This document shows positions 1 through 50,051 of a stretch of 64,000 bases of DNA, piece after piece (positions within the stretch are counted from its first letter, which is position 1; each line of letters opens with the position of its first letter). This stretch comes from Diplonema japonicum (Eukaryota; Protista; Euglenozoa: Diplonemea): assembly GCA_964019335.1 (NCBI GenBank), contig OZ025723.1, positions 1-64,000 of the forward strand, read 5' to 3'. The translations under genes were made by a program, and so were the position numbers. A model generated the notes under the pieces. It ran no database searches and was not told the origin of the DNA. It saw only the letters and a program-made list of their open reading frames with translations.

Positions 1-48
1 GGGTTTGCGGGTTTGCGGGTTTGCGGGTTTGCGGGTTTGCGGGTTTGC
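1..48 (+). repeat. (GGGTTTGC)6 octamer tandem repeat, running off the window start
   Basis: Six perfect GGGTTTGC units followed by an A-run. Variants GGTTTGC(A/G) recur at 2398-2418 and 2914-2940. Confidence 0.9.
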
Positions 49-57
49 AAAAAAAAA

Positions 58-1337
58 TGGGGGGGCAGAGAGGGAGGGGCACTACCTTCTCTCGGGCGTG
101 CTGTCTCTCCCTCTGCCTTTTTTTCCTCCAAAGAGGGTCTGTTTTTCACCTCCGTGGAGGGTCCCTCTGGAGAGGGCTCTATAAAAGAAAAAGGGGGGGA
201 CAAATGGGGGGGAGGAACACTACCCTCTCTTGGGAGTGCCACCTCTTCCCCTCTCTCTCTGTTTTCCTCCGAAGAGTGTCTGTTTTTTACCTCCGTGGAG
301 GGTTCCTCTGGAGAGGGCTCTAAAAATGAAAAAGGGGGGGACAAATGGGGGGGAGGAGCACCACCCTCTCTTGGGAGTGCCACCTCTTCCCCTTTCTCTC
401 TATTTTCCTCCGAAGAGGGTCTGTTTTCCTCTGAAGAGGGTTCTAAAAAAAAAAAGGGGGCGGGTGGGGCACTATCCTCTCTCGGGAGTGCCACCCCCCC
501 TTGCCCACAAAAAAGGGGATCTAAAAAAGGGGGTTCATCTGTTAACCCAGGGGATGGGTCTTCCTGGGGTGTGCAGGTGAGCTTGGGGCCTACCGCACAC
601 AGGGTGATCAACACCCTGACACCAGTGGACATCCCAGACGGGATGTGGTGTGTCCACTGGTGTCTCGCTTCACCTTCCAACAGTGCCCATGAGAAGGGGG
701 GCACCAGGTATCTCGCCACCCTGTCCCCCCTCCTCATGACCATTGTGGTCTCGGCTCCGTACGAGAGGACTAGGACAATCGGTCCCAGCCTCACGTCATC
801 CTTGTGGGTGGCAATCCCACAACCAGACTTGTACTTGTTGACAAGTACCTGGTTGGGGACCACCTTGAGCCCTGCGGCGGCGGCCACCTCCCTCACCCAC
901 CCCTCCACCCCCCCTGGGATCCCCGTGGTGGGGCGCACCTTGGCGTTCGTCCCCTCCCACCGGTACCTGTATTGGAGGGTCTCCCTCCCTGAGTTCCCAG
1001 ACAGGGCCTCCCACTTTCCTGAAAGCAGGGCTTTTGGGAAGGCAGGGGCCGGGCCCATCCTCAACCCAGGAGGGTGTTCACCATACACCAGTACCCACCC
1101 CTTTTTTTCTCCCTCTTTTCTTCCCTCTTCAACAATAGCAGGGTCGGCTGCAGGGGTCGTGGTCGCGGCAGTCGTGGCTGCGGCAGGGGCGGCTGTGGCG
1201 GTCTCAGTTGTGGCGATCAGGGCGGCAGGGTCGGCTGTGGCGTTCAGGGCGGCTGGGGCGGCCGTGGCTGTAGCAGCGGCGGTCAAAACCGCGGTCTCTG
1301 CTAGTGATTTTTTTATTCAAGGTGGTGGGGATAACAT
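58..1337 (-). mobile_element. Degenerate mobile-element ORF encoding an AlkB-family 2OG-Fe(II) dioxygenase domain plus C-terminal repeats
   Basis: Manual translation of the minus strand. ATG at 1337, TGA at codon 7, then open to the window start, with an in-frame Met at 1058. It reads GRETLQYRYRW...PNQVLVNKYKSGCGIATHKDDVRLGPIVLVLSYGAETTMVM...VPPFSWALLEGEARHQWTHHIP...RVLITLCAV. HxD at 798-806, distal His at ~642-656. Confidence 0.75.
70..500 (-). repeat. ~141-nt (47-codon) tandem repeat, about 3 copies, in the C-terminal part of the AlkB ORF
   Basis: GAGAGGGCTCTA...GGGGGGGACAAATGGGG at 170 and 311 (period 141). Minus-strand unit is roughly EPSPEEPSTEVKNRHSSEENRERGEEVALPREGSVPPPHLSPPFSF. Confidence 0.85.
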
Positions 1338-1339
1338 GG

Positions 1340-1601
1340 AAATATAAGAAGTACATCAGATGTGTTGTTTGCTGTTGACCTCCTCGTTGGTCATCACCAG
1401 TAGCGCCCGAGTGGAAGAACGTAACGCAGATGCTCAGGGTGACGAACAGGCAGCAAACTGCACGAGCGCAGAATCTTGGTTACCCAGGACGCCCCGGCTA
1501 GGGTTGAGCACACCGCACGCATTAAGGACACGACGCGGAACGCAAAAGAAGCTACAACTCGGCCAGGGAGCGCCCCCTGTAATCAAGTAGGTAGTTCGTG
1601 C
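1340..1601 (-). repeat. Repeat family A (5' terminal/UTR region of the AlkB element), CpG-intact copy
   Basis: Lies directly upstream of the AlkB ATG. Alignable with 4435-4935 (inverted), 6341-6527, 6572-6625 and 7525-7670. Confidence 0.85.
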
Positions 1602-1703
1602 TTCATTGCACGCTTAACACCACCTAGTGTTGCAATCAAAGCCCCATTTATTTTATTATTTTTTTTTTCTAAAGGGGGGTGGGGGGATCTAGGGGGTGGG
1701 GGT

Positions 1704-2047
1704 GGGGATTCATACTGCCCAACCAGATAGTCTGGTTGGGTCGGCCCTGGCATCATGTGCAGCCTGGTGGCCTGTCGGGGTTCCTTCTCCCTGTGGTTTG
1801 CACGGTCACCTCCTCTTGCATTCCGTCTTGGATCCATTTTTTATTTTTTTTATTTTTTTTTAAAGTGTGTGTTGGGGGAGGGGATCCTTTCGGTAAGCGG
1901 CAGGCAGGCCGACAGGCAAAACAACCCCCCCAGACGACGGCAACAACAGACAACGGACGCAGCGGCAAACCCAGGCAGAGGCAGCAGGCACCAGCAGAAC
2001 ACAAACGACCAATAAAGTACAGAAACTGTAGCTTTAGAATCATTGGT
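1704..2047 (-). mobile_element. SL-headed retroposed unit, copy 2 (SL, ~150 nt, A-tract, ~130 nt with hairpin)
   Basis: Tandem homolog of 2048-2395. Starts with the SL and ends at GAATCCCC. Hairpin CCCAACCAGA-TAG-TCTGGTTGGG at ~1718-1740. Confidence 0.75.
2010..2047 (-). other. Spliced-leader exon copy (38 of 39 nt)
   Basis: Reverse complement is ACCAATGATTCTAAAGCTACAGTTTCTGTACTTTATTG. It carries the conserved euglenozoan SL 3' half CAGTTTCTGTACTTTATTG and a diplonemid-type 5' half, with one CpG>TpG change versus the other copy. Confidence 0.92.
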
Positions 2048-2395
2048 GGGGATTCATACTGCCCAACCAGATTGCCTGGTTGGGTGGGTCTCGGTGCCAT
2101 GCACTGCAGGCTGCGGGCTTGCTCCTGCGGGCTGCGGCTGCAGTCACCTCCTCCTGCGAGTCGTCTTGGATCCATTTTTTTTTTTTGTTTTATAGTGTGT
2201 GATGGGGGGGAGGGGATCCTTTCATTGAGCAGCAGGCAGGCCGACGGGCAAAACAACCCCCCCGGACGACAGCGACGACGGACAACAGATGCAGCGGCAA
2301 ACCCAGGCAGAGGCGGCAGGCACCAGCAGAACACGAACGACCAATAAAGTACAGAAACAATAAAGTACAGAAACTGTAGCTTTAGAATCGTTGGT
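2048..2395 (-). mobile_element. SL-headed retroposed unit, copy 1, with an extra relict SL
   Basis: Order is SL (2358-2395), relict SL (2342-2357), body, A-tract, hairpin CCCAACCAG-ATTGC-CTGGTTGGG, then the GAATCCCC end. Confidence 0.75.
2358..2395 (-). other. Spliced-leader exon copy (38 of 39 nt)
   Basis: Reverse complement is ACCAACGATTCTAAAGCTACAGTTTCTGTACTTTATTG. It differs at about 2 internal positions from the Diplonema papillatum SL as I recall it (AACCAACGATTTAAAAGCTACAGTTTCTGTACTTTATTG) and lacks the first A. Confidence 0.93.
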
Positions 2396-2418
2396 GTGGG
2401 TTTGCAGGTTTGCGGGTT

Positions 2419-2875
2419 GACAAGGGCCAACAAGGCAGAGAGAGGACACAATGGTGGGAATCTGGACACAGCTGTGGTGGCTTCTGAAAGGCAAGGGAGC
2501 AACCCTCACACTGCAGTACATCCCAAGTCACTGTGGTATTGCAGGGAATGAAGTGGCTGAGAGGCTGGCAGCGGCAGGTGTGAAGGAACAACAGAGGCAG
2601 CCAGTGAGCCTTGGATCAGTGAAAAACAAGCTCTGGAAATGTGCGAAAGACAGGATTGATGCAGAGCTGGACAAGCAGACAGCCTACCAGAAGCTGACAA
2701 AGGGCAAGGAACCCCCAAAGACAAACAGCTTGGGCAGGAAAGCCGAAGTCTGCATCAATCGACTGAAGACAGGACACCACCTGCTGCTGAAGGACTACCA
2801 TGAGGGTCCGAAGCAAAAGCCATGTCAGCTGTGTGGCACGAAGTGCTGCACCCTGAACCACCTGGTGATGAGCTG

Positions 2876-2878
<3 letters not shown>
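2419..2878 (+). mobile_element. Non-LTR retrotransposon fragment: RNase H C-terminal half plus CCHC zinc knuckle (I/ingi-like group)
   Basis: LQYIPSHCGIAGNEVAERLA (RNase H), RLKTGH and CQLCG...TLNHLVMSC. Truncated at both ends and cut by a T35 run at 2879-2913. Confidence 0.85.
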
Positions 2879-2914
<36 letters not shown>

Positions 2915-3724
2915 GGTTTGCAGGTTTGCAGGTTTGCAGGGACTTGAGAAAATAAATAAAAAGGGGGACTTGAGAATGTTTTTTTTTTTTTTTCTTCACA
3001 AGATAAACCTTAAGAGAAGATAAAAATATTCCAAAACAGACAATCAAGTTCCAACCTGGGAGGAAGGCATGGGTTTCTCTTTTTCTTTATGGGAGGGAGA
3101 GGGGAAGAAGAAGAGGCAACTCCAATTTAAATGATAAAAATTCAAAAATAAAAATTACAAAAAAGTCTTAAAAATAAAAAGTTGTGACACAACAAGTCCA
3201 CCGATGAAAAATGAAACCCAAGAGGAAGGAGTGGGTCTCTTCTTTTCTTTTTTTTTTTTGGGGGGGGGAAGGGAAGGGAAGGAGAAGAAGAGGTAAATTC
3301 TAAAACATACTAGGGAGGAATGAGTGGGGCAGGGGGTAAAATTTAGGAGGGGGAAAGAGGGAGAATCAGAATTTCAAAAAAAAAAAAAAAAAAAAAAAAG
3401 AAAAAGAAAAAATAAAAATAAAAAAAAACAAAAAAGAAAAACAAAAAAAAATCTAAGTGGTTCTATCTAGCCTGGCTGTTGTAGCACCTGTTCCCTATTC
3501 TTTATTTTTCCCTTTTTTTTCAGAAAAAAAAAAACAAATGTTTCACATCTTCCTATGGTGGGGGGGGGGGGGGGGGGGCAGAACTGGGAGCCAAAGGCCT
3601 TAGGCCAGAGGCACTCCTCGAAAAACCACAGCAGACCACAGACCTCTTCAGTTCAATTGAAGAGATGATCACACAGGACCAGCAGTAGAAGTAAATAGAA
3701 TAGTAAAGAAAAAAAAAAAGAGAA

Positions 3725-4030
3725 AACAGGAATGGAGAACAAAAAGAAAGGAAATAGTGTGAGAATTGAGATAATTAATGGGATGAACAGGACAAATGAG
3801 AAAAGAAAAAGAAAAGGGAAAAGAAAAAAAGAGAACAAGTGTAGGAATATAAATACAGATAAGAAGAGTGCCATGAAGAGAAGAAAGAGGAAGAAAAAAG
3901 AAAAAAAAAGTTTGTGAGCAGCAGCCTTATCTAATCCCGTTTACCCAAACAACCCAACTCGTTTACCCCCAGAAAAAGAAGAAGAGGAAAAAAAAAAGAG
4001 AACAAGTGTGAAATAAGAAGAGTGCCACAA
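3725..4030 (+). repeat. Repeat family B (purine-rich, ~300 nt); second direct copy at ~6866-7150
   Basis: Both copies share GGAAATAGTGTGAGAATTGAGATAATTAATGGGATGAACAGGACAAATGAG...CCTTATCTAATCCC.TTTACCCAAACAACCCAACTC. Confidence 0.9.
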
Positions 4031-4233
4031 AGAGAAAAAAAGGAACAAAGAAAAAAGAAAAGAAAGAGAAAAGAAACAGTGAGCAGCAACCTTAGAAGGA
4101 AAAAAAAACCCCCTAGAAGGAAAAAAAAAAGAAGAAAGAAGAAAGAAAAAAAAAAAAAGAAAGGCAAAACTTGTAGATAAAGACCCTGCAAATGTGTGGT
4201 ATGAGTTGCTCACCCCCCTACCCAAAAGTGAGC

Positions 4234-4360
4234 AAAGTGTCCATTAAAGAAAAGCAAGCCAGGATAGACTTGTGTACCCTTTTTTTCACTCCTCTCACTT
4301 TCACCCACCCAGGCCCCACCCACCCCTACCCCTACCCAAGGCCAGGGAGGGAGAAAAAGA
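4234..4360 (+). repeat. Repeat family C (~125 nt); second direct copy at ~5979-6105
   Basis: Both copies share AAAGTGTCCATTAAAGAAAAGCAAGCCAGGATAGACTTGTGTACCC...CCCAAGGCCAGGGAGGGAGAAAAAGA. Confidence 0.9.
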
Positions 4361-4434
4361 AAGGAGAGGGCTTGGCCAGCCAAAAAAAAAAGAGGTTTAT
4401 TTAAAAAAAAAAAGGAGGCTGGTGTTGGCAGCAC

Positions 4435-4935
4435 CCTGCACAAGAACTGTCTACTTGATTACAGGGGGGTGCACCACAGCCGAGTTGTAGCTTCTTCTGC
4501 ATTCTGCATTGTTTCCTTAATCACTGTGGCTGGGATGTAGCTTCTTCTGCATTCCACATCATGCCCTTAATCACTGCAGCCAGGTTGTAACTTCTTGCAT
4601 TCCATGTCATTTCCTTAACCACCACAGCCAGGTTGTAGCTTCTTCTGCATTCTGCATCGTGTCCTTAATCACCATGACCAAGTTGTAGCTTTTTGTGTTC
4701 CATGTCATTTCCTTAATCACGATGGCTGGACGGCTGGGTTGTAGCTTCTTCTGCATTCTGTGTTGTGTCCTTAATGTGTGTGGTATTCAGCTCAACCCCA
4801 GCCAGGGCACCCCAGGTAACTAAGATTCTGTGCTTGTGTGGTTTGCTCAGTGATGACAGATGAGGAGGTCAACAGTGAACAACACATCTGATGTTTTTCT
4901 TATATTTTCATGTTATCCCCACCACCTGAAAAAGA
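4435..4935 (+). repeat. Repeat family A copy with an internal ~50-nt x6 minisatellite and the first codons of the AlkB ORF
   Basis: GTTGTAGCTTCTTCTGCATT...CCTTAATCAC units at 4484-4775. Ends TTCTTATATTTTC-ATGTTATCCCCACCACCTGAA (ATG at 4910), matching the reverse complement of 1320-1350. Confidence 0.85.
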
Positions 4936-5630
4936 AGATAAAAGATTTTTTTTTTTTTTTTTTTCCTACCAACAGTCAGCACCCCCATGCACACTGAATT
5001 TTTTTTCTTTTTTTTTTTTGTATATTGTGCACCAGGAGGTGCACATTGTGACACCCCTGTCAGTGTTGTTATGGGAAAAAACCCAGGGGGGTGGGGGGGC
5101 AGGGGGGCAAAAAAAATTTTTTTTCTAGGGACCCTCACTTATTTCTCATTTAGCACCCTCAAAACAGACTTTTTTGGAAATTTTTAGCCAAAAAAAAAAT
5201 TTTTTTTTTCCCAGGGGACCCCAAACTTGGGGTCACTTTGGCCATTTTTGACCCAAAATTTTTTTTCTGGAAATAGCCAGAAATCATAAAATTTATATTT
5301 AAAACACCTTAAAAACCCACTTCTGCAAACCAAAAAGTTCAGAAAGGTGTTTAGGTGGAATACACATCTCTAAACTATATTCTGAAGTAAAAAGTAAGTA
5401 AAAATCCAAAAATTTCAGGGGGGCAACTCATTCTCTTAACAACACTGGGAGGGTAATTTTTTTTTTTTTTTTTTTTTTTGAACACCCAATTTGGTCCTGA
5501 AAATGGAATTTTGAACAGCCAATGGAAAGTTTTGACCCTACTTGGACTGAAAAAAATCTTTTAAAAATCACTTTAGGAATTTTTGGAATTTTGGCCTAAT
5601 TTTGGGTGATGATAAGCAAAATGCTCCTTG

Positions 5631-5781
5631 AAGTAGGTTTCCCAGCTGTGGTTACCTAATCGAATTTTTTTTTCCTTCAAGGAATCAACTTTCTTCCGAA
5701 AATTTAAGATTTATATCATTCTAGCACCTTGTAACTCACTTTTCAGGAAACACACATTTTCACACATTTGAATTTATTCTT
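5631..5781 (+). repeat. AT-rich repeat with an inverted copy at ~6684-6808
   Basis: CTGTGGTTACCTAAT...CTTCAAGGAATCAA...ACACATTTGAATTTATTCT matches the reverse complement of 6684-6808. Confidence 0.8.
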
Positions 5782-6340
5782 AAGTTTTTTTCTGAACCTA
5801 TTTAATTTTTAAACCTAATAAAGAAAGTGTAAATCTCCTAATCAAAACTTTTTAGTCCAGTGTTGCCAAAATGGGTTGAAAATTAAAGTACCCGGCTGGT
5901 TACTTAATGCAGCATAGACAGAAAATTTGCAGTGTTGGGGTGGGCCAGACCCCTCAGACCACCAGTCTGGCCCACTACAAAGTGTCCATTAAAGAAAAGC
6001 AAGCCAGGATAGACTTGTGTACCCTTTTTTCGCTCCTCTTCACTTTCACCCACCCAGGCCCCACCCACCCCTACCCCTACCCAAGGCCAGGGAGGGAGAA
6101 AAAGACACACATGTCACACTTCCATCCCTCACCCATGCCTTCACTTTGATCAGGTCCTTGACCTTTCCCACTGGGGCCCTTATCCTTGCATTGCACCTCT
6201 CCAAGAACTCATGTAGTGTCACCTTGGTAGCACTGGCTCCCACCACAATGCCCACTACCCCTTCCTTCCCTGGTGTCGGGTGGTGTCTGCACCCCTGGGT
6301 CTGCAACTTGACCACCCTCCATGCCATTTCCAGAGTCCCC

Positions 6341-6527
6341 TAATGCAGATGCTCAGGGTGATGAATTGGCAGCAAACTGCATGAGCACAGAATCTTGGTT
6401 ACCCCAGGTTGCTATGGCTGGGGTTAAGCTGCACACTGCACACATTAAGAACACAACACAGAACACAGAAGAAGCTACAACTCAGCTGCAGTGCCCCCCT
6501 GTATCAAGTTAACAGTTCTTGTGCAGG
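6341..6527 (-). repeat. Repeat family A copy, CpG-depleted
   Basis: Aligns to 1422-1601 with the CpGs replaced by TG or CA. Confidence 0.85.
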
Positions 6528-7524
6528 CACCACCAACACGACGAACAGGCATTTCCTCCATCCATTTGGCTGGTCATCACCTGTAGCACCCTGAGTGGAA
6601 GAACAAATTGCAGATGCTCAGGGTGAGTAAACTACTTAGGGCACCTATTTCTAGGGGGATTTTTGCTCCTCTTAAATGGTGAAAGAATAAATTCAAATGT
6701 GTATATCCTGAAGTGAGTTATAATATAAATTTTAATTTTTTGGATGAAAATTGATTCCTTGAAGAAAAAAAAATTCAATTAGGTTACCACAGTTGGGTGA
6801 CCTATTCCTAGGAGGCTCAATATCACCCTCCAAAAAAAAAGAAAAAAAAAAGAGAAAAAAAACATGAACAGAAAACAAAAAGAAAGGAAATAGTGTGAGA
6901 ATTGAGATAATTAATGGGATGAACAGGACAAATGAGAAAAGAAAAAGAAAAGGGAAAAAAAAAGAGAACAAGTATAAGAATATAAATATGGATAAGAAGA
7001 GCACCATGAAGAGAAGAAAGAGGAAGAAAAAAAAAGTTTGTGAGCACCTTATCTAATCCCATTTACCCAAACAACCCAACTCATTTACCCCCAGAAAGAA
7101 GAAAAGGAAAAAGAGAGAACAAGTGTGAAATAAGAAGAGCACCATGAAGAGAAAAAATAAAAATACTTTCTACCCTCCTGCATGTGTTGAGCTGCACACT
7201 GCACACATTAAGGACACGACATGGAATATTGTGCTGTCAGTGTTGTGGTGATATAGTCACCACTTTCAACCTTGATGATGCAAAGAGGAAAAAAAAAGGG
7301 GGGGGGGGGGAAACTAGTTTGACACTCCATTTGTTTGTGTGCACAAGCAGAATTTTACCTAATAAAATAGCTCATTACGCTGCCATCAACTAGTTTTTAG
7401 TCTTGACAATAATATTGTTAAAACAAAAAAAAAGTAAGGAATTCCCTGTTCTGCCAAGTTCTGGTTCTGCCATTCTGCCAAGTTCCGACTTTCAGTTTGG
7501 CAGAAGGGAATGGAACAACCCAAT

Positions 7525-7670
7525 CCTGCACAAGCAGAATCTTGGTTACCCAGGACGCCCTGGCTGGGGTTGAGCTGAACACCACACACATTAAGGACAC
7601 AACACGGAATGCAGAAGAAGCTACAACTCGGCTGTGGTGTACCCCCTGTAATCAAGTAGTCTTGTGCAGG
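7525..7670 (-). repeat. Repeat family A short copy bounded by 10-bp inverted repeats
   Basis: Begins CCTGCACAAG (7525-7534) and ends CTTGTGCAGG (7661-7670). Confidence 0.8.
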
Positions 7671-8576
7671 TCCTTTAACTCATATATCTCTCACCACGGC
7701 TGGGTTGTAGCTTCTTCTGTGTTCCGCATCGATCACCACAGCCGGGTTGTATTACATCCAAATACAACATTTCTGGACATTTGTACATACCTGCAGCTGC
7801 AGTGCACCAGAGTAGATAGGTGCAAATGGCTTGATGGAGCTGTGCATGTCTGTGGTATGAAGAAGAAGAAAAAGAAAAAAAAAAAAAAAAAATCGTTGTC
7901 CAAAAATATTTGAAAAAAAATTGTTTGCAGGTGTGTCAAAAATTGCAGAAAATTTGAGTCTGGTCAGTCTGGTCAGTCTGGCCGATCCGGTCAGTCTGGT
8001 CAGTCCAGTAAAATGGGTACACCAGACCAGACCGGATTCACCTAGCCAAATCCTTGGGGAATTTTTGGGTCAAAAATGGCAAAAATGAGCCAAAGTAGGG
8101 GTCCCACTGAGAAAAAAGAATTTGGTCCATTGGTAGATGGTTAAGGGTGATTTTTACCTTGTATGAAGTTGGGAAGCTCATCCATTATAGTTTGATAGTC
8201 TTGAACGGATGCTTTGATAATGACAGGGTACACACCAAAGTTTTAAACACGTTGGGTGGACCATGGGATGTTGTTTCTGCACATCATGAACTCCAACCTC
8301 CACCTCCACTCAACTACTAGCTGTTGCACAGGATCAGTTGTGATAAAATACACCCCCACCCACCCACTGCATATTAGGGCCTTTTTTTTTTGCTCAGTTT
8401 TAGCTATTCCTATGTTGGGATGAGGGACATAATGTGCTGTTTTTGAGAAAATAGCAGTTTCTTTCTATTTTTCCTTTTCTTAAAACAGTTCCACTCAATT
8501 TCTTTTTTTACTGTCAAAGTAATTTTAATTCTTCCTTGTAATGTTACATAAATCAGCACCTGTCAAGAATCCACAC

Positions 8577-9455
8577 ATGAATCTTGTTGTGTTCCAGCAT
8601 GGAAGTCATGGGGCGTTTGGGGATTTCAGCACTGTAATTAAAGAGCTAACAGCAAGAAGGAAAGACATGGTTGTGTGGGGTAGTGATACATGTAAAGGGT
8701 TAGGAACCGATAAGGGTGTTGGTCCTGTGGCAGACATTATTGCAAAAGAGTTAGATGATTACCTTCTACCACTTCTTAATGACACTCGAGTGCAGGTCTG
8801 CTTTGTTGGCCACTCTATGGGAGGACTTGTTATCAGATCCTTAGTTACAAAAGCAGCTTGTTTTGCACATAAACATTTTGAGCCGGTGTTATACATCTCT
8901 ATTGCAACACCTCACTTGGGGATTAGACAGATAGGTAGCTTTATTCTGGCAATGGCATACATCATAGGTAAGGTATACTGTCAAACATACTTGGACTTGG
9001 CACAGGAGAGTGAGACTTTAAGCACTTTGTGTAACGATACTCACATTACAGCACTGCGAAAGTTCAAGAAGCTAGTCACTGTTGCCAATCTTCACGACCA
9101 CTTAGTCAGCTTTGGGACATCAGCACTGCTAACTAAGAGCTGTGACCCTGGTCTCCAACAAGACCCAACCTGTGGGAAGCTGCGATGTCCAGTGAGGTTG
9201 ATGCCTGCCACCGTCCCTGCTGATGAGCAAATCAGAGCATCCTTTTCGAGGTATACCGACTTCGGGAATTATCGTGCAAACAGGGTGGTGCAGCAATTCA
9301 AAACCCTGCGCAGTCTGGAGTGGGAGATGGTGGCTGTTGACCTGTTTTGTAGGGGGAATGCTGCACACTCAGACATCATCGCGAAGGGAAACTCTGCCCA
9401 TGGTGAATTCAGTGCATCTCGTCTTTCCAAGATAATAGATGAATCTTTTGAATGA
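8577..9455 (+). CDS. DUF676 / putative serine esterase-lipase (alpha/beta hydrolase)
   Basis: VVFQHGSHG, GHSMGG nucleophile elbow, ATPHLG, D-x-LV and a C-terminal His (AHSDII). An in-frame upstream ATG exists at 8541. Confidence 0.85.
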   Translation: MNLVVFQHGSHGAFGDFSTVIKELTARRKDMVVWGSDTCKGLGTDKGVGPVADIIAKELDDYLLPLLNDTRVQVCFVGHSMGGLVIRSLVTKAACFAHKHFEPVLYISIATPHLGIRQIGSFILAMAYIIGKVYCQTYLDLAQESETLSTLCNDTHITALRKFKKLVTVANLHDHLVSFGTSALLTKSCDPGLQQDPTCGKLRCPVRLMPATVPADEQIRASFSRYTDFGNYRANRVVQQFKTLRSLEWEMVAVDLFCRGNAAHSDIIAKGNSAHGEFSASRLSKIIDESFE

Positions 9456-9714
9456 TACAGTCCTTGCTCACCTGGGTGTACACCTAAGCCCAGGCAAGAG
9501 CTATGAAGTTTGCTCTCTTTGTGAAACCTGATGGCATCTAATATCTATGATGACACCTTCACGGACAGGTAGCGTTTCAGAGAGAAAAAGAAAGAAAAAT
9601 AGAAATTGAAAAAAAAAAAGCACCAATCAAAGTAAAAACATGAATTAAGTGTCTGTTCCTGATACTTCTTTATTCAGTTCCACTTGCATTGCTAATGCTT
9701 CTACAGGCGAAATT

Positions 9715-11068
9715 ATGAGTTTGGCTGAGGAACTGAAGAAATTAGCAGACCTGAAGGTAGCAGGGCTGCTAACCGAAGAGGAGTTCAAGGAAGCCAAAGG
9801 TAAGGTATTGACAGAGGGTGCCCATGGCGTCCCTCAGCCAGAAGTTCAAGCAACACCCAAGAAGCTGACACCAGATGTCACAAAACTACTGCATACAATA
9901 GACGACAGTATGGATGTTGAGAACGCTGTTGACATGTTAGGCATGTTGGTGGGGAACATCCTGAGTGCCCCGGACAACGTGAAGTACAGATCTATCAAGA
10001 CAACAAACGCGAAGTTGGCAGCTTCAGTGTTCAAAGTGCAAGGTTCTAAGGAGTTCCTTGAGAGTATCGGATTTGAAAAAGTGAGGGAGACTGTTTACAT
10101 GATGGGTATGCCCGACATAGAGATTCTGAAGGAAGCAAGAGAGCAACTGAGCAGAGTGAAATTCTTCAGGGAAATGAGAGACAGGGACCAGATGCGAAAG
10201 AAAATTGCCAACGAGATAAGGCATGAGAAGAGGCAGGGACACGTGCACAACGGCACCATTATACAATACTGCAGAGACGAGCTTTTAGGGAACGAGTCAA
10301 CAACATCGATATCATGGCTGAAGAAAATCCTTTGCAAGGTAATTGCATCTGATGACCCGGCCTTCAGACGAGTGAATGTAACGCCTGCGTTCTATGAAGA
10401 ATGCTGGGCACTTCCCGGAACACAAGAATTGTTGCTTGACATCGCTCGATGGGAAGTATCGGACGACTGCCAGGTGCTGCAGCTCCCACTAAACTCTTTC
10501 GCCGAGCAGCAGCATGAGGCAATTAAGTTCCTTGAAGGCATTGAAGTTGAGTGGCAGCAAAGGGCCATGCGAGAGGAAGAAGCGAAGCGTGAAAATGCAC
10601 GTGCAGAGCTCAAAGCTGTGTTTGATGCACGGAGGAGACAGACACAAAAGTCTACGGCTTCCGTTCACCACAACCCAACAGGAAAAAAAGTATGACAAAG
10701 CCACAACCGCAGGAGTATCACAGATCCCCATCTCCGAGGCGCTTAAGTACCTCACGGGCAATGCCCTGTCAGAGCCGGTCTCATCCGAGTCGGCAACACA
10801 AACACAAGCCAACCGAGAAGAAGATGCCACCGCCACCAGCCTCATCAATGACGTCGCTGCATTCATGGTATGCTCCCAACGATTATTTAAAATTTGGTAG
10901 GAAATAGCGCATGAAGCATCTGGTGCTGGTCAAGGCCTCCGCAACCCAGGGAGGATAGAAGCCAACAGGCTCCGACAGAAGTTCGCAGATGACCGAGACA
11001 TCGGTTACCTACACGATCTGAAGGAGGAATGGGAACGTAAAGCTAAAGAACGAAAACATGGATTGTAG
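9715..11068 (+). CDS. SHOCT plus tandem PUB-domain protein (spliced; introns ~10650/10657-10681 and 10868-10900)
   Basis: SLAEELKKLADLKVAGLLTEEEFKEAK (SHOCT); LVGNILSAPDNVKYRSIKTTN...EFLESIGF (PUB); a second PUB-like unit follows. The 3' exons are inferred and the first junction is ambiguous. Confidence 0.7.
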
Positions 11069-17485: not shown

Positions 17486-18223
17486 CTTGTGTTTTACTGT
17501 AATATCTACCTAATTAATTACTATACAACCTTCTAAACCTGTGCGAGAGCGCGAGATCATCCGCAACGCCAACTATTGAGATCCAGTGGACCCAGTATCC
17601 TCGACGGCAGCGGACCCAGTATCCTCGACACTGGTGTAGCTGCGATTCAACACAACAAGGAGGCTTGCCTCCAGCAAGCAATTTTCCATCCCTTTGCTCC
17701 TTAGGCACAATTGGCACCCTGCATGTCTTTCTGACTGTCGAAGTACCTTTTCCCTTTAATTCCCTGTCTGGCCTTCGTTTCCTTTTTTTTATATTTGTTC
17801 CGGTATTTTGTTTGTTACAGTAACAAGTCCTAACACTTCACTCAAAGTGACTTGCTGTTCTCCCTCTTCCTTTTTTTCCTCTGAACCCTTTCCTTCCCGC
17901 TTCTTCGTTTCTGCGCAGCTCGGGATGCTAGCTCTCCTCTCACCGGCAGAGTTTCAATCTTGGTCGCAAGGCTTCCAAAAGATTTTATGGCGTCCCGTCC
18001 ACCGACCTGAGCATCGTGCATCGCTTTCGATTGATACATTTCTTCGACTGACTTGGCACACGAAGCGCCTTCTTCACTGCTGCCGTTCTTTGCTGGACGG
18101 CAGCACCTGCGATCTTTAATATCTTTAGTTTCTTTTCATTTCTTCTTATAATATTTGCTACATGTCATTTCTTTTTCCTGTTGCAGTTCACACTTTCCCC
18201 AGGAAGGAAGAAAGGGCGCTACA

Positions 18224-19484
<1,261 letters not shown>

Positions 19485-22824: not shown

Positions 22825-23017
22825 CCGCAACCCACAACGTAGTTATCAGATCATACCACCAGTGGCGCGTGCACCTTGCCAACAGCACCGTGGCCTCTTA
22901 CGTTTAGTATCTTCTTAATTTTTAGGTCCTTTTTTTCCCCATCACCTCATAAAACAGAGTTAATGGAAAGGCGCGTGGTGGTACTGCACCTGTAGATCTC
23001 CGGTCATCCGACAGAAC

Positions 23018-26000
23018 ATGATACGATGCACGGTTTGCATGCTGCTGTTTGCAGTAGCAGAGGGCGCCATAGTGAGCAGATGGGACTTTGACACCAGTGA
23101 CCTCACAGACAGTGGTCCTGCGGGGAACAATGGGAACGGGGGGTACACATTCTCTGGTGACTCAGCTTGCGGGATGTCTCTAAGACTAGTCAACGGTCAA
23201 GCGGGCCCGACCATGGGGCCGAAGCCTGCCAACATGATACCTCTAGGGAACAACCCCTTCACGATGTCGACATATGTTAAGGTGATGACACCCGGTCTGC
23301 GCACACTGTTCCACATTGGTGCTGACGGATCAAATGCGTATCGCAAAGGATTGGCAATGGGGGTGCAAGGCAATCTGAAACTGGCCATTTACTGGCATTC
23401 AGGCAGTCAGTGGACAAATATTGGCCCTACACTCGCATTGAACACCTGGCACTTCATCGTGTTTCAGTTTGATGGGACAAACCTCAGAATCTTTTTGGAC
23501 GAGCTGTTAGTTAAAACGTACCCAATGACATTCAACCTTCAACCGTCTTCGAGCTACGGGACACTCCAGTTGGGTGAGAGGCACCATGGAGGCACACCGC
23601 TCTCGAGGGGTGGTGACTACCTCCTGGACGCAGCAATACTTGGAAACTCTGCCCTGTCGATCAACGAAATACGTGCATATTGCAAAACAGCTGCTCCTCC
23701 AACAGCTGCACCTCCGACTCCAGCACCGCCTACACCTGCGCCACCTACACCTGCACCTCCGACCAACCCCCCTTTGACCCCATTTCCGGATACAGCAGCA
23801 CCGCCAACTCTTGCACCTCCGACACCAGCACCTCCTACCCCCGCACCGCCCACCCCAGCTCCACCAACACTCCCCCCTCTGACACCGTTTCCAGACACAG
23901 CAGCACCACCTACTCCTGCTCCGCCCACCCTTGCACCACCAACACTCCCCCCTCTAACACCGTTTCCAGACACAGCAGCACCACCTACTCCTGCTCCGCC
24001 CACCCCTGCACCTCCAACTCTAGCTCCACCTACCCTTGCTCCTCCCACACTTCCTCCGTTGACTCCGTTCCCAGATACCGCAGCACCACCTACGCTTCCT
24101 CCATTGACTCCGTTCCCTGACACTGCAGCACCACCCACCCCTGCTCCTCCAACTCCGGCACCGCCAACACTCCCTCCCCTTACACCATTTCCAGACACAG
24201 CAGCACCACCAACTCCTGCCCCTCCAACCAACCCGCCTTTGACCCCATTCCCTGACACCACAGCACCACTAACGCAGGCACCTCCCACGCCAGCTCCAGC
24301 TACGCTCCCGCCGTTAACACCATTTCCCGACACTGCAGCACCACTGACACCTGCGCCTCCTACCCTTCCACCCCTGACACCATTTCCAGACACAGCAGCA
24401 CCACCCACCCCTGCGCCCCCTACTCCTGCCCCACCAACTCTCCCACCATTGACTCCGTTCCCTGATACGGCAGCACCACCAACATCTGCCCCTCCAACCA
24501 ATCCACCTCTTACCCCGTTCCCGGACACTGCGGCACCACCAACGCAGGCACCTCCCACGCCTGCTCCAGCTACTCTCACGCCGTTAACACCATTTCCTGA
24601 CACTGCAGCACCACTGACCTCTTCCCCATCCACACTTCCACCGCTGACCCCATTCCCTGATACTGCGGCACCACCGACTCTTGCACCCTCAACTTCTGCC
24701 CCTCCAACCAACCCACCACTTACTCCCTTCCCTGACACGGCGGCACCACCAACACAGGCGCCTCTTACGCCAGCTCCACCCACGCTCCCACCATTGACAC
24801 CCTTTCCTGACACTGCAACACCACTGACACAGGTGCCTCCGACCTCTGTCCCACCCACACTTCCGCCACTTACACCATTCCCTGACACGGCGGCACCTCT
24901 AACCCCTGCACCACTAACAGCAGCACCTCCTACCCAAGCACCCCCCACACTCCCGCCGCTGACTCCATTCCCAGATACGGCAGCACCGACTCCCGGTCCT
25001 GACACCACGACTCCTGACACGTTGGCTCCTGCAACAACTGCACCTTTGACTGTTAGTCCGCCAACTCTGTCCCCCGATACACCGGGCCCGCCGACAAAGG
25101 CGCCTGTGACTCAGGCACCTGAAACTCTAGTGCCGCCTACAGCAAGTCCCACACAGCCTCCACTCACAGTTGCACCAGTAACAGTTGCACCTATGACTCT
25201 CGCCCCGCCCACACTCCCGCCGTTGACACCTAACCCTGGCACTGCAGCACCAGATACCCCGGCGCCTCCCACACCTACCCCACCAACTGTAGCCCCTTTG
25301 ACACCTGCGCCCGACACACTCGCACCAGTTACAGCCACTCCAACACAGTCCCCTGCTACCTTGGCCCCCGTGACCATAACCCCAGCCACATTCCCTCCTG
25401 GTATACCCGTCACAAGTATCCCTGCAACACAAGCACCTGCTACTTTTCCTCCCGGCATTCCAGCTACTGATGTCCCTGCGACACAACCTCCAGCCACCTT
25501 TCCTCCTGGTGTCCCTGCGACAAATGTTCCTGCAACGCAAGCACCGTCTACCTTCCCCCCCGGTGTCCCTTCAACTGATGTTCCTCCCACACAATCCCCA
25601 GCTACCTTTCCCCCCGGTGTCCCTGCAACTGATGTCCCTCCAACACTGGCCCCACCTACGTTTCCCCCAGGTTTGCCCGCGACCGATGTTCCCTCAACGC
25701 AGGCACCCGTCACTTTTCCTCCTGGCGTACCTTTAACTAGCGTCCCAACGCTCGCGCCAGCTACCTTCCCTGGTATTCCAGTGACAAATGTCCCTGTGAC
25801 AGACGCACCACCTACGCAAACACCAGTGACTTCTGCACCACCTACTCAGCCTCCCACAACACTAACTCCGTCAACTATGATGCCCGGTGCACTACCAACT
25901 TTCGCGCCGGCGACACTTGTACCAGCTGGTCCCACATTCATCCCAGCGACACCTGCCCCCGCTAGCCCCACGTTCGTCCCGCAGACCGCTCAGCCGAGCA

Positions 26001-28595
26001 CACCGACACCTGGATCGGGTTCAACCACAACCGGTGCACCTATGACTTTTGTACCACCCGGGCACTCTATGCCAACCCCCATGCCGCCGACAACAGCGCC
26101 CCTCCCACCTGGGCAGACATTTGCCCCTACAGCGGTCCCTCCTGTACCCATACCGACGAGCGTGGTTCCGATCAAAGTCGAAGGCTCAGTCGACTCTCTG
26201 CAGATCCAGAGCGGGGGATCGGAAGTTGTCCTGAAAATTTCCCAGGGCGGGGGTCTGAAGTGGCCTGATGGCTTCCTGCCAACAGCACTACGCTACCCTG
26301 GCGGAGAGGTTCTGTTTGACGTCAACGCCACAGAGGCCCAGCGGTGCGGTGGGGGGCCTTGCATGGTCGTGGTATGTACTTCGTCCTTGCACAAAGTACA
26401 CATTTCAGGAAACTCTAACGCCGCCTTCGAGTTCCGGTTACGGATTGGCAGCAACAGCTGAGAAAAACAGTGCCTTCATCAGCACAACAGTATGCACCGA
26501 TTATGAAGCAACACAACAGGTCGTCTCGGAAACTGAAGTGCGCATTCTGATCCAAGATCGAGACTTCAGGGCCTACTCTGGCTACAGTGAAGATATCACG
26601 TTCACCATCACAGACTCTTCATTTGCCACAGGGTCAGCAGAGGCAGTTTGCAGAAGCAGCAGCGAGGCGTCTCAGGAGTACATGACATGCCAGTGCAATA
26701 CCACGAAAGGCCAAAGTGGGTGCAACAAGGCCATGAGGCTGACACCCCAGCAAAGAACCTTCCCAAACGATGACGAGCTCACGACGAGCACAACCACGGC
26801 AGCAGCAGTGGTGGCAGTTCTGGGCGTCATGATCCCTGTAACCTCTCCTTCCACAGGGAGTAGTTTATCCAGAGTGTCGATCCTTTCAAGGACTTCAATC
26901 TGTCCAAGTGAAGGGAAAATGGAGTTGGACAGGTCTCTGAATCCGTCGGGTCTAGAACTGGGTAGCGGTGACTACGTGCAAGTAAACGGTGCAGTAGTGG
27001 CCTCGATCCTCGTGCAAGTGGGGCTCATTATCGTCTCTCTCATAACGGCGTCAATAATGTATAGACAGATGGACGCACGTCGCGTGACACAGAGGACAGG
27101 CTTCACGTCGCTGCGCCGCAGTAGGGACGACGTCAAGTCGAAGAGCATTGTGCGCATCGTGCGGCACGGGCTGTCGAAGCATGACAGGACGTACTTGGCA
27201 GCGCGTGCACGCTTTGGATGGATCCTTCTGCCTGCAACTTTTCTCTACGGCGGGGCAATGCTCTCATGCATCACAGCTATTTTGTATTCGTCAAGGTTCT
27301 TCAAAGTAATCGCTGCCTTTGACTTAGTTATATTTGGGGCAGGCCTGCCCTACTTCACCTACCGCACGGCTGTGAAGTGTGTAAACCATTCGGATGTGCA
27401 TGAAGTGGAAGGCAACGACGAGCGGTCGCTGTGGCTCAAGACGTGGTGGGGCACGAGTGAATGGGTACAGGGCGAAGGCGTCATCGATGGTGCGTGGGTG
27501 GAGCTCCACAGACTGTTCTACGACGGGTACCACAGGAAGGCACGTTTCTTCATGACCACAGAGTTCCTGATGACGTTCGTCGTGAGCTGCCTCGGCGCGT
27601 GGGAGCCCACTACAATAGGCCAGTGCTGGATACGTGGGGGGCTTACCACCTTCGTAACGGTCTGCTACCTGTTGTACATGGTGTGGCTGCGACCGTACCT
27701 CGCTCCTTATGAGAATGTGCTTGAAATCGCATTTGTTGCAACGGAGGTTGTGATGCTGGTCCTGATCCTGATCGGGATGGGGGAGTACCGCCCCACAGAA
27801 CACTGGAGTGTGTACTATGCAGGGCAGCTGGCGTTCTACCTTGTCTGGTGTATTTTGCTGAAGGCGATCACAGACGGGTGCATTTTTGTGATCGACGAGT
27901 ACGCAGGGTGGAAGGACAAGAAGAGGCCGCAGGGATTCCTGCGACACTTGCTGTGCTGCGGTAACAACATACAAGGCGACACGCTTGACGAACATGTGCT
28001 GCGGCGGTTCCACGACCTGCAAGAAGAGCTTGAGATGGACGACGCAGAGTACGCAACGTACAGAGAGAGAACAAGCGAGGGGGGCACACCGGAGGCAAAC
28101 AACCCAGGGAGCAATGCAGGGAGCAACCCAGGAAGCAACGCAGGAAGCAACGCGGGAAGCAGAAGTAACTCATCGTCGTTGACAGCATCACTCATGCGCA
28201 ACGAGAGTGTTTATGCTGACATCTCGCACGCAGAGGTCCCATTCAACAGGACAGTGTCCACCTTCGGTAGGGGCGGCAGCACAATGCCCGTCACCCTTAC
28301 CGAGGGTGGGGTCTATGAGTACTCATCGCCTGTTACTGTAGAAGCACCTGTACCACCCTCTGCGTCATTGGGAGGTTTCCCCTCTTCCTTTGGTAGTGCT
28401 TTGGGGCCTGCCTTGGGGCGTGCTCGCCGCACTAACCCCATGCGTCCTCGGTCACGGTCAAATATGTCGCACCTTTCAAACTCAAGCGAAAGGCCGCCGT
28501 CGCCACCTCGGAGGAGGCCTTCACCTGCACCTTCTTCAATGTCGTCATCGCCGCCTTCACCTAGGCCCCTGGGTTTGACCTTCGTGGCAACGTAG
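23018..28595 (+). CDS. Large surface protein: signal peptide, LamG/ConA-like domain, Pro/Thr mucin stalk, multi-pass TM region (intron 26372-26408)
   Basis: NTWHFIVFQFDGTNLRIFLD (LamG_3-like). Removing the 37-nt GTATGT...TTTCAG intron fuses ORFs 23018-26461 and 26268-28595 in frame (CMVV|ETLTPP). Confidence 0.85.
23687..26170 (+). repeat. Coding Pro/Thr repeats: about 17x PPLTPFPDT with PPTPA pentamers, then PATFPPG(V/I)PATDV-type units
   Basis: Visible in the translation. Synonymous positions vary between units. Confidence 0.95.
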
Positions 28596-29462
28596 GCCTT
28601 GTGCCTCGTGCGCTGTATCAACATATCTTATTGTTTGTTTCGGGTTCGTTTCAGGTTTTTGGTACCATCATCACCCCTTCTTGTGGTACTGTCACTATGA
28701 TGCCCTTTGAGGGATGTTGTAACCACAATAATAAGGAAAGAAAAGAAGAAAAGGGGGGAAAAAAAAAGCATAGTCTTTTTTTTTTATATAAAAATATTCT
28801 TCTATTTTTAAAATACTATCTAAAACGGAAAAAAAAATCTTTTTTTTTTCAATTGCACGAACCCTCGTGTGCATCCCTTATATCCCACATTCTTGTACCC
28901 TTTCCCCTCCCTTTTTTGCACGATTGCACGCTTAACGCCACCTAGTGTTGCAATTAAAGCCCCATTTTTTTTTCTGTTTGCGATCTCTCCTTTTTTTCTT
29001 TCCGCCCTTTTTTTATATTTCTTGTAACAACAAAGTAGAGTGCGCCTGTTCGCTGCCCCTGTGCAATGGGGTACCGTGTGGAGGGGCTAAACATTAGGAA
29101 AGTAAAGGACCCCCCCCCCCCCCCCCCCCCCTTGAGTAGAAATGATTCTGTTTATTTTGCTTTTGTACTTCTGATTTTTGCAACTGAAAAAACACCGCTT
29201 TTCTTTTCTTTTTTTTAATAAATCCCCCTTCTTCCCCCCCCCCCTTTTTTTTGCAGGTGTCTTTTCTTCTCTTCGTGCGCAAAACTTTAAGAAAGTAGAA
29301 CTCTTATCAGAATCATCCCCTTTTTTTTATTTTACTTTTTTCTTCTTTCTCCAACGCCGTGTCATTACTCACAGGCCGCTGATAGGAGTGTGAATACGGT
29401 CCCATAATGGATCCAGTCACACCTTCTTTCTCCCCCCTTTTTTTTCCCCTCTTTTTCAATAC

Positions 29463-45759: not shown

Positions 45760-46014
45760 AAAAAGAAAAAGTAAAGAGAGAATCCCTGAATTCGTTATGT
45801 TACCTCCCCCCAGCTCATGTTACCCATTGCATAAATGGTGAGTACGCCCCCTTTTTTCCCCTTTTTTTTCTTGTTCCGTTTCAATGTGTTTAAGTAAAGG
45901 CAACCAGTACATATCCCCCTCTCCTTGTTACAGTCGTTTTCCCCGTAGTTCCAGATTATTTGTTTTCATTTATTTTTTCGTTTCTGGTTGTGACGGCAAC
46001 ACCACTCCACAGGG

Positions 46015-49000
46015 ATGACCACGTGCATCGAGCAGATCGCGATCTCCGGGATCAGATCGTTCAACCCTGATGTGTCGCAACGACAAGGGATAAGGTTCCA
46101 GAAGCCTGTGACGATCATCCTAGGTCCGAACGGGAGTGGGAAGACGACCGTGATCGAAGCACTAAGGAACGCCTGCACAGGGGAAGTGCCCACAAACACA
46201 GGGAAAGGGGCAGCCTTCATACATGATCCCAAGATAGCAGGGGAGACCGAAGTGAAGGCGCAGATCAAGCTGCAATTCAGGACAGCGACAGACCAACAGA
46301 TGCTGATCGGGAGGAGCTACCAGCTGACACAACTAGCAAACAAGCAGAAGTTCGAGACGCTAGACGTGTCACTACAGACCCGCGACCCAAAGACAGGCAA
46401 GGTGGTGTCGCAGTCCTACAAGTGCTCCGACATAGACAAACTGGTGCCCGACCTCCTCGGGATCTCTAAGCCCATCCTCGACAACGTCATCTTTCTCCAC
46501 CAAGACGACACCAACTGGCCCCTAGCCGAGGCGGCAAAGCTGAAGAAGAAATTCGACGACATTTTCAGTTCAACACGCTACACCAAAGCCCTTGAAGAGA
46601 TCAGGAAGGTTATGAAGGAGAACAAAGAGAAGATCAAGGAGCACACCGCCAACCTCGCTGTCTTCAAGGAGAAGCGTGGCGTCGCGCACCAGTTGCGCTC
46701 TCAGATAGACGACACGCAGAAAAGGATACAAACGGCCAACGAGCACATGAAGTCCATCGATGTGAAGATCGATAAGGTGCAGGCACAAATCGAGGCGACG
46801 GGGAAGCAAGCCGACGAGATCCAGCAGCTGGAGAGCGACACCATCAGACTGCAGGGCACCGTGGAGGCGTTGGTGCAGCAGCGTGAGGTGATGGGCAGGG
46901 CGTTGCAAGTCATCAGCGAAGAAAGCGACGACAAACTGCAGCAAGCTCTTGAAAAGTTCGATAAACTTTTCACCGAGCTGCGCAACGCAGCTGCAACATG
47001 CGAAGGGCAGCTAAAGGGGCTGCACACCGACGCAAAGAAGGACGAAGAAATCGTCATGAAGCTGAAGAGCGAAAAGGAGTTCCTCGTAGCGCAGGGCCAC
47101 GAACATCAAAGGAAAATCCAGAACCTGCAGTACATCATGGCTGAAGCATCGCGTGTGCATAGCATAGCAATGCCTACTGTGAGCGAAGATAAAATGGACG
47201 AGAGGGAGATTATCAGATTCTTTGACACTTTCAAGACTAAAGTAGAAGGTTTGAAAAGCAAGAGAGAAGCTGTTCGCACGGAGATACGAAGGACGCAGGA
47301 GGACATAGAAAAGATGATATCTGAAGCCAGGCAAAAGAGGGACCACTTGGTTGCCAGCCAGCGTGCCATCGACACGCAAAACGAGACGAGTAGGCCCAAG
47401 CTGCGTGACCTCAAGGACAGGTTCAACATGCTCTCTGCTGCGGAGCAAGAGTTGGAGGACGCGAAGAAGAGGCACTCGGAGCTGGAGAAGGAATACGTAG
47501 AAGGCCAGAAGCACGACAGTGAGACGTCTGCAAATTTGAACAAGCTTCGTGATGAACACCACGAACTGCAGAAGAGCTCAGATACCTTGAAGCTTGAGGC
47601 ACGCTCTAGACGGGACGAGCAGGAGGCGGCACACAAACTCAAAATGCTCCGTGATGAAAAGAATAAGAAGAAAAAAGAAGAAGGTACTACTTTAGCTACC
47701 GCAAAAAAAAGGGGGGGACACCCACTACAGGCACAATGCGGACGGAACTGGAGACGCGCTTCACGCAAGTCGTCGGGAGGAAGATCTCAGCCAATGTATG
47801 AAATATGGGGCGAGGCGAGGATAACACATAAACACAGTACTACGAAGATGTGAACCAGTGCATCGAATCGAAGAAGGCATTGATTGCAAAATCGCAGAAA
47901 CAAGTTACACAAGCTGACAGAGAGGTTGCTGTTGCCAGACAGCAGATAGACCAAACAGTTATGCAAACCAAGAGGTTGAAGCAGGACGTGGCAAACAAAG
48001 AGAACCAGTACTCTGAGCTTGTGAAGGAGTACAACAAACCGCTTCCGGAGCTTCTCACGAAAGCTGAGGCGAAGGAGGAGAAGGACAGGAAGACGGTGGC
48101 GACAATGAAAGCGCTGCAGATGTGCCATGACAACTTCACACAGCAGGCGGAGGAAGAAGAATGCTGCCCTATATGCGCCAGGGGCATGAACGAGTCGGAG
48201 CTGAGTGTCATGACGAAGCACGTGCGTCAAAAACTGCAAGACGTTCCTGCAACCATTGCCAAGAAGGAGGAGGCCCTTGCTAAAACACAGCAGCTTGTGA
48301 AAAAGGTACGCGGACTGCTCCCAGTCCACGGGGACGTGACCCGTATGCAGAAGGAGATCTGCGAAGTCGAGAAAAAGCTGGCGGAGCACAACGACACATA
48401 CGACACGCAGCTTGAAGCGCTGAAGGACCTCACTGCAAAGATGGAAGCCCTCAAGTTTGAAGAAAGGGAATTCCACGACATGCAGAAAGGAGCCGAGAAG
48501 ATAAAGGAAACACACGTGTCAGTCGTGAAGCTGGTAGAAGCGATCACACTAGAAGAGGAGAAGATCGCCGCTCAGTACGGCGGAGGGGTACGCCCTCTGG
48601 ATCTTGTACTGAAAGACATCAACAACATCCAAGAGAAGATGGATTCCATTATCAAGACTCAACAGGAGCTCATGCGCAACGCGGAGGAGAAGCGCAAGGT
48701 AAACACCAACGTGCTGCACCAGCTGCAAAAACAAGCGTCGGCAATGACAAGCAAAAGCAACCAAGTAGAGGAAAGGGGTCGCTTGAAGCTGGAGTACGAA
48801 AGAGTGCTTGAAGATTACAAGAAGGGCAACGCAGAGATCGCTGAGATAAAAGCAAAACTACCTGTGATGGAGGAGCAGCTTGGCAAGTATGAGAGCGACC
48901 TGAAGCGCCAGAGGGAGGCAGGCGATGCCTCGGAGAAAGAGATCACGCAGCAGGTAGAGCAGCACCAGAATGACCTGTCGAGAATCTCAGCACACGTTAC

Positions 49001-50051
49001 TGATATCAAGGCATATATGGAAGACAAGAAAGGCGAGAGGACGGAGGCCATTCTTGGTAAGCTTATCAAACTGGACGACAGTCAGAAAGAGAAGCAGCAT
49101 CGCATTGATGTCACAGAGCAAAAGCTTTCAGAACTGAACAAGAAGGTCAACCAGCAGGATGTCACACGCAGAGAGTTAGAGGCAAACGTACAATACAGGG
49201 AAAAGTGCAACGAGGTGAAGCGATCCGAGCAGAAGCTGCAGAAGCTGAAGCAAATCATCCGTGAGCGGACCAAGGGACACGACGGTGTGTGGCTGTCGCT
49301 TGATAAACTTCGCGAGGAAAAAGGAAGCTTTGACAAAGAGAAGGCTACCTTTGCAGGACAGGCGCAGGCGAATGAAACGCTTCTCAGGGAGAAGCAGAAG
49401 GAGCTGTTCGGTACGAAATACGATAGGATCGACGAGAGGTACAACAGCACTTTGATCCGATTGGCCACGGCGCAGTTAACGGACGAGGACCTGGCGAAGT
49501 ACAGTGTGGCTCTGGACAGTGCGCTGATGCGGTACCACGATGAAAAGATCAAAGAGATCAACGAGATCATCAAAGACTTGTGGATGCGCACCTACAGAGG
49601 GCAGGACATCGACTACATCGAACTGCGCAGCGACGTGGAGGTCTCGACAGCGAGAAGCAGGAACTACAACTACAGGGTGGTGATGGTGAAGGGAGGAACA
49701 CAGTTGGACATGAGGGGCAGGTGCAGTGCCGGTCAAAAGGTTTTAGCCTCCTTGGTGGTACGACTGGCATTAAGTCAGGCGTTCTGTTGCGACTGTGGTA
49801 TCCTCGCACTGGACGAGCCGACCACGAACCTCGACGTAGAGAACATTGACTCGCTTGCCTATGCTCTGACAGAGATCATTGAAACCAGGAGAGGGCAGTC
49901 CAACTTCCAGCTCATCATCATCACGCACGACGAGCAATTCGTGCGGCGCATCGGGAACGCCTGTGGCACTGAGACGGTGTACCACATCAGCAAAGACATC
50001 GAAGGGTCCTACTCCACCATCGTGGAGCGCAGCTTTACCGAGATGATGTAA
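46015..50051 (+). CDS. RAD50: DNA repair protein RAD50 (introns 47684-47730 and 47796-47837)
   Basis: GIRSF, GPNGSGKT, zinc hook CPIC, MRGRCSAGQK, LALDEPTTNLD and IIITHD. The two introns restore the frame. Confidence 0.97.

Follow-up and report, generated by a model that had tools for sequence, protein, structure and literature searches.

CpG-specific decay of a repeat-filled region in Diplonema japonicum is consistent with DNMT5-type CG methylation

Introduction

CG-specific methylation of transposon-rich islands is associated with DNMT5 enzymes in Phaeodactylum tricornutum and other diatoms and in Cryptococcus neoformans, and knockout of Phaeodactylum DNMT5a is reported to remove CG methylation from the transposable element (TE) islands and to de-repress the elements (PMC9998398). 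For the diplonemid Diplonema papillatum, DNMT homologs, a predicted 5-methylcytosine (5mC) pathway, base J genes and a dozen AlkB homologs have been described (Valach et al., PMC10161547), and supplementary table 1 of Sarre et al. (PMC12344493) lists DNMT5 in all three diplonemids surveyed (two genes each in Sulcionema and Rhynchopus, one in Hemistasia), with neither DNMT1 nor DNMT4 in any of them. Here we describe the first 64,000 nucleotides of contig OZ025723.1 of Diplonema japonicum (assembly GCA_964019335.1, forward strand; hereafter the window), in which a region packed with repeats has exchanged CG for TG or CA by a decay that is CpG-specific, two-stranded, recent and regional.

Diplonemids lie between the kinetoplastids, where 5mC is reported as undetectable in Leishmania (PMC7463849), and the euglenids, where 5mC has been called from nanopore reads of Euglena gracilis (PMC12455990). 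The same survey lists no DNMT1/3/5 in its five kinetoplastids and no DNMT4/RID in any of its 11 euglenozoans (PMC12344493), unlike another paper which attributes a DNMT4 to Euglena. Judged by its closest protein matches, which are a Diplonema ambulator protein (58%) for a DUF676 hydrolase and D. papillatum for NAR1, the organism is a diplonemid and not a kinetoplastid. The original prediction from this DNA, which set CpG methylation against the base J of kinetoplastid relatives, thus overstated the surprise, since the window is diplonemid and both DNMT5 in three of three diplonemids and a 5mC pathway were already published. A literature search that did not extend to subscription papers returned gene-level predictions and no diplonemid methylome or CpG-decay analysis, and the main text of PMC12695648 does not mention diplonemids.

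Results

CpG depletion of the repeat domain

The window opens with nested repeats in its first 8 kb and continues with genes from approximately 8.5 kb, the annotated ones all on the plus strand. All decay results below concern this one locus, the core of which is the following domain.

2501-9000, no strand: core CpG-depleted domain, CpG observed/expected (o/e) 0.15, GpC not depleted

The core contrasts with an o/e of 0.77 downstream, values per kb being 0.08-0.30 across 3-9 kb and mostly 0.6-1.0 beyond 10 kb. GpC is not depleted in the core, and the CpG/GpC ratio of 41/236 there compares with 163/240 in three AT-matched intergenic stretches (p 2e-13); roughly four in five CG pairs have gone to TG or CA in this repeat-packed 6.5-kb stretch. 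Decay is partial in the elements to the left (o/e 0.52) and nearly full in the core, and the depleted domain extends beyond 7670, to approximately 9-10 kb.

Decay among repeat copies

The clearest view of the substitutions comes from a repeat, family A, whose copies and derivatives are distributed as follows.

1307-1600, minus strand: family A copy A1, less decayed than the other copies, with 19 CpG; an abundant non-coding repeat
4435-4720, minus strand: family A fragment and a 50-nt minisatellite derived from family A
4730-4939, plus strand: copy A2, inverted relative to A1
6341-6626, minus strand: copy A3 with fragment A6, the latter having lost three of three CpG
7526-7670, minus strand: copy A4, with 3/12 CpG kept (in 7526-7659)

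Copy A1 served as the reference for all family A comparisons, although it is itself slightly decayed (at 1399 and 1565), and the copies, which share ancestry, are not independent of one another. Pooled against A1, they carry transitions at 44/98 CpG bases compared with 16/250 other C/G (p 6.7e-16), and a single transversion at CpG, so that the predicted enrichment of transitions at CpG is borne out at this locus. The decay originally reported between 1422-1601 and 6341-6527 was confirmed: over the aligned 1422-1588 and 6341-6509, the 14 CpG of the reference have become six TG and seven CA, with one at a gap and none kept, and transitions affect 13/26 CpG bases against 6/66 other C/G (p 4.5e-5). 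Copy A2 has likewise lost 11 of 11 CpG (4732-4847). The description of the decay as near-complete thus holds for the copies at 4.7 and 6.3 kb only, and not for 7526-7659, where three of 12 are kept. The same decay was claimed for the 50-nt minisatellite, which arose from part of family A by tandem amplification, and there too it was found: its four core CpGs in five units read 13 TG, six CA and one CG, the same CpG having gone separately to TG or to CA in different units.

Three further repeats were compared, two of which are listed here.

1-48, plus strand: six copies of the 8-mer GGGTTTGC, junction CpGs intact
2914-2940, plus strand: microsatellite of the 8-mer GGGTTTGC, all three junction CG reading CA
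3705-4040, plus strand: duplicate of 6838-7157, with two CG>CA and five CA/TG swaps

In the third, a 141-bp tandem at 49-495, the CpG bias was not significant.

Sequence context

CpGs were lost after all four 5' neighbours (ACG 14, GCG 12, CCG 10 and TCG 6, against availabilities of 12, 13, 6 and 7), and no flanking-base motif beyond CG was apparent. The composition of the core showed no loss of CWG, while its TpA/ApT ratio is 0.80 against 0.79 downstream, and CpA+TpG is raised rather than depleted. TCG-type contexts are associated with some cases resembling repeat-induced point mutation (RIP). Decay in all four contexts, with CWG kept and TpA/ApT unchanged, rules out RIP of the CpA type as the signature here, and nothing points to CHG methylation or to methylation in all contexts as in Naegleria.

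Direction and age of the change

The left-hand part of the locus contains these elements.

3-1316, minus strand: multi-copy element with an AlkB-type 2-oxoglutarate- and Fe(II)-dependent oxygenase frame (PF13532, E 8.8e-13)
1701-2054, minus strand: spliced-leader (SL)-RNA-like unit 1, partly decayed
2045-2402, minus strand: SL-RNA-like unit 2, partly decayed, at sites other than in unit 1
2421-2879, plus strand: RNase H-like fragment, weak, below the Pfam cut-off

Contigs of four public runs were aligned on window positions 50-2870, the stretch to which this polarised test applies, and the results rest on the best-supported 40 of 184 differences. Among these best 40, 29 are A>G or T>C from the window to the other copies, and all 29 restore a CpG where 34% would be expected by chance (p 3e-14), which means that the locus has lost CpGs that other copies kept. 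None of the 29 falls outside CpG, a mutational proxy for little non-CG methylation; the remaining 11 comprise seven non-CpG transitions, one CG>TG and three transversions. Within 600-904, a contig of depth 858 differs from the window at 9/305 bases, and seven of the nine listed differences are CpG losses; since the copy is approximately 97% like its relatives and most of what separates them is CpG loss, the process is recent.

Two of the individual claims for these elements stood in part. The AlkB codons are indeed decayed relative to other copies, with 12 listed losses, but only partly, as 17 CpG remain in 525-1000; eight of the 12 losses alter the encoded residue, as mutation of a copy free of constraint would do, rather than codon choice. 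Decay had been attributed to one SL copy, whereas both of the two 345-nt units within 1701-2402, which we take to resemble spliced-leader genes, are decayed at different sites, with six CpG common to both. The RNase H-like fragment has one codon-boundary CpG against 10.2 expected.

A fading edge in the first genes

The depletion does not end with the repeats but reaches the first two host genes.

8577-9455, plus strand: full-length DUF676 hydrolase gene, 58% to the Diplonema ambulator protein
9715-10695, plus strand: PUB/SHOCT gene, where the gradient is fading

Between 8577 and 11800 synonymous CpG use increases: it is 0.08 in the first half of the DUF676 gene and 0.20 in the second, 0.27 and then 0.35 across the PUB gene, and 0.51 on reaching 11.8 kb. 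CpG-forming synonymous options are used at 11/80 sites in the DUF676 gene and at 1477/3061 in 16 other open reading frames (ORFs; p 2e-10). A decay that grades into the first two host genes over approximately 3 kb is what a regional mark without a sharp border would leave, and this gradient, together with the many other copies of the same repeats that are CpG-intact, suggests that the target is region-like and not defined by repeat homology. By comparison, coding tandem repeats at 23-26 kb carry 228 transversions alongside CpG transitions at 220/1018; with transversions as many as transitions they lack the decay signature, although, being short and diverged, they make a weak control. On limited data, the best nucleosome-scale period for synonymous CpG in the genes was 210 bp (z 2.06), a peak matched by 29/100 shuffles.

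The downstream genes were originally described as CpG-rich, which the o/e of 0.77 does not bear out. All 16 ORFs tested (9715-54995) mildly avoid CpG at synonymous sites (odds ratio 0.25-0.66), and this could reflect low-level or past methylation or an unrelated codon bias.

Other features of the window

Family A is likely to be a very abundant short retroposon (1285-1660), and copy A1, one end of which adjoins a T-run on the plus strand, is likely to be a poly-A-tailed retroposon on the minus strand. Contig depth over family A (1285-1569, public run X3) is 56,000-71,000 against 70-300 on the RNase H-like fragment, depth not being copy number. The 8-mer GGGTTTGC (1-48, 2398-2417, 2914-2940) flanks inserted elements and is G-rich on the plus strand at the start of the window. 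A 50-nt element at 1605-1654 recurs at 28923-28972 in the gene-rich zone, with one and two CpG respectively, numbers too small to count. No longer homologs of the AlkB core were found among 1840 candidates, which is weak evidence, and a frame at 6046-6339 considered as a second AlkB copy was rejected. Rfam gave no matches at the gathering score, including for the SL-RNA-like units, and none of the listed public runs matching 1-9900 is an RNA run.

Among the genes, that at 18190-19460 is protein kinase A-like and by eye has several short GT-AG introns, its neighbours being mostly single-exon. An ORF at 22964-26461 has a Laminin G/ConA domain and long Pro/Thr-rich tandem repeats with units of 15, 45, 54, 75 and 135 nt. 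A RAD50-like gene at 45994-50051 (AAA_23, zinc hook, Walker B) is split between two frames that overlap, with an intron probably connecting them.

Discussion

Deamination of 5mC to thymine produces a decay of CG to TG and CA. Change that is specific to CpG, affects both strands and has a demonstrated direction is best read as deamination of CpG 5mC, and we consider it probable that the transposon-filled region is subject to CG methylation by a system of the diatom and Cryptococcus type, with DNMT5 as the putative writer. CpG cytosines would be methylated across the region and would deaminate to thymine, swapping CG for TG or CA in the repeat copies. We would expect 5mC to be present today and, going by relatives, to be written by the CG maintenance enzyme DNMT5; the depth of decay may track how long a copy has resided there and how far it lies from the core, and the mark may silence the elements as it does in diatoms and Cryptococcus. 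This retains the CpG methylation of the original prediction; its RIP-like alternative found no support, and the target appears to be a region rather than repeat homology.

Several observations weigh against this interpretation. Elsewhere, as public contigs show, the AlkB element and the SL units mostly retain their CpGs, so that repeat status alone is insufficient for decay. Synonymous sites of the DUF676 gene also carry less non-CpG G/C (109/200 against 0.70, p 1e-5), and part of its shift is thus general AT drift; nor was any excess of CpG-type amino-acid changes seen in comparison with its homolog (0/14 after C). Lastly, the CpG losses listed in 50-2870 are skewed to CA on the plus strand (21 CA against 8 TG, p 0.024), and in run X3 the same stretch shows 45 A>G against 24 T>C (p 0.015), so that C>T falls about twice as often on the minus strand, in which these elements are sense, a bias that symmetric methylation alone does not predict.

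The intact copies bear on the possibility that the footprint is historical, CpG methylation having been lost or much reduced in the species. Deep, near-identical contigs of the same elements that keep their CpGs would be expected if this were so, but a copy differing by 3% from its relatives, with seven of nine listed differences being CpG losses, points to recent action, and DNMT5 is retained in three of the three diplonemids surveyed (PMC12344493); we regard a purely historical footprint as unlikely. The strand skew would be in keeping with CpG-directed enzymatic deamination without stable 5mC, whether by a deaminase or by a DNMT in the role of mutator, with exposed single strands as a possible substrate, and the near-total loss in some copies is of a kind with such an activity. 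Against it, both strands are decayed within one copy (six TG, seven CA), no flanking motif beyond CG is seen and the smooth gradient into the genes better suits a chromatin mark, all of which makes direct deamination decidedly improbable.

A RIP-like process, in which duplicated DNA is recognized by homology and its copies are mutated, could produce the heavy C>T/G>A change in linked repeat copies, and CpG-context patterns of a RIP-like kind occur in some fungi. The near-identical CpG-intact copies are nevertheless abundant, the decay reaches beyond repeats into two host genes, a TCG preference is absent, and TpA/ApT is level (0.80 against 0.79) with CpA+TpG raised. Such defences, moreover, are described as preferring CpA and as confined to a few fungal clades (PMC12543289), and DNMT4/RID was listed in none of the 11 euglenozoans of one survey (PMC12344493), the Euglena assignment elsewhere notwithstanding; we find this process very hard to credit. 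An artefact, whether of base composition, of errors in the assembly or of GC-biased conversion affecting the other copies, to which the AT-rich core (41% GC) with its homopolymer runs might lend itself, is most improbable of all, given that AT-matched intergenic DNA retains CpG, that at least half of the words of 1-9900 occur in five public runs (one of which may be the source of the window) and that conversion would not confine itself to CpG in 29 of 29 listed cases.

With CG methylation of the region as the preferred explanation, the footprint predicts a context (CG), a target (transposon domains) and an edge (a spread of approximately 3 kb), and 5mC in diplonemids becomes a cheap and specific test which bears on the timing of the kinetoplastid loss and on coexistence with base J. 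Mechanistically this is textbook, and its value lies in lineage coverage: DNMT5 genes are already catalogued in diplonemids, and what this sequence would add is a footprint with a specific, testable prediction. A more elaborate proposal joins these elements into DNMT5-centred CG heterochromatin lying beside base J in a polycistronic genome, with a mark that would extend approximately 3 kb over the leading genes of an array and would be opposed by a retroelement AlkB countering host methylation or its damage. We hold this to be unlikely; were it true, it would represent an arms race between transposon and host over DNA methylation in Euglenozoa.

Comparison with described systems shows where the locus fits. 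Fungal RIP (RID/DNMT4) shares the excess of C>T/G>A in repeats, but its CpA preference, its requirement for Rid1 and its mutation of duplicated sequence but not of the linker, as described in PMC12543289, do not fit the window. Linker methylation in Micromonas, Aureococcus and Emiliania, as cited in PMC9998398, depends on the same enzyme family, whereas the genes here have no significant nucleosome-scale CpG periodicity (29/100 shuffles reach the peak in these limited data). The discobans Naegleria gruberi (PMC12344493, section 7) and Euglena gracilis (PMC12455990) resemble it in carrying 5mC on repeats or endogenous viral DNA; Naegleria, however, is reported there to have DNMT1 and methylation in all four dinucleotide contexts where the footprint is CG-only, and in Euglena regions and flanks are both described as heavily methylated where the footprint is local. 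The 5mC pathway of D. papillatum (PMC10161547) and the count of DNMT genes in three diplonemids (PMC12344493) concern the same lineage and predict the mark from gene presence; beyond these gene lists the window gives sequence evidence for a context (CG) and a target (a repeat domain). The closest likeness is to the DNMT5a TE islands of Phaeodactylum tricornutum and the DNMT5 system of Cryptococcus neoformans, which as reported in PMC9998398 are CG-specific, occupy TE-rich islands and leave adjacent genes with most of their CpGs, DNMT5 also being the CG-type enzyme listed for diplonemids. The difference is that here a mutational footprint alone is observed, in a euglenozoan whose gene arrays are trans-spliced and which carries base J genes. 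By this analogy the locus would work like DNMT5-type CG methylation of transposon islands, of which it is a candidate member.

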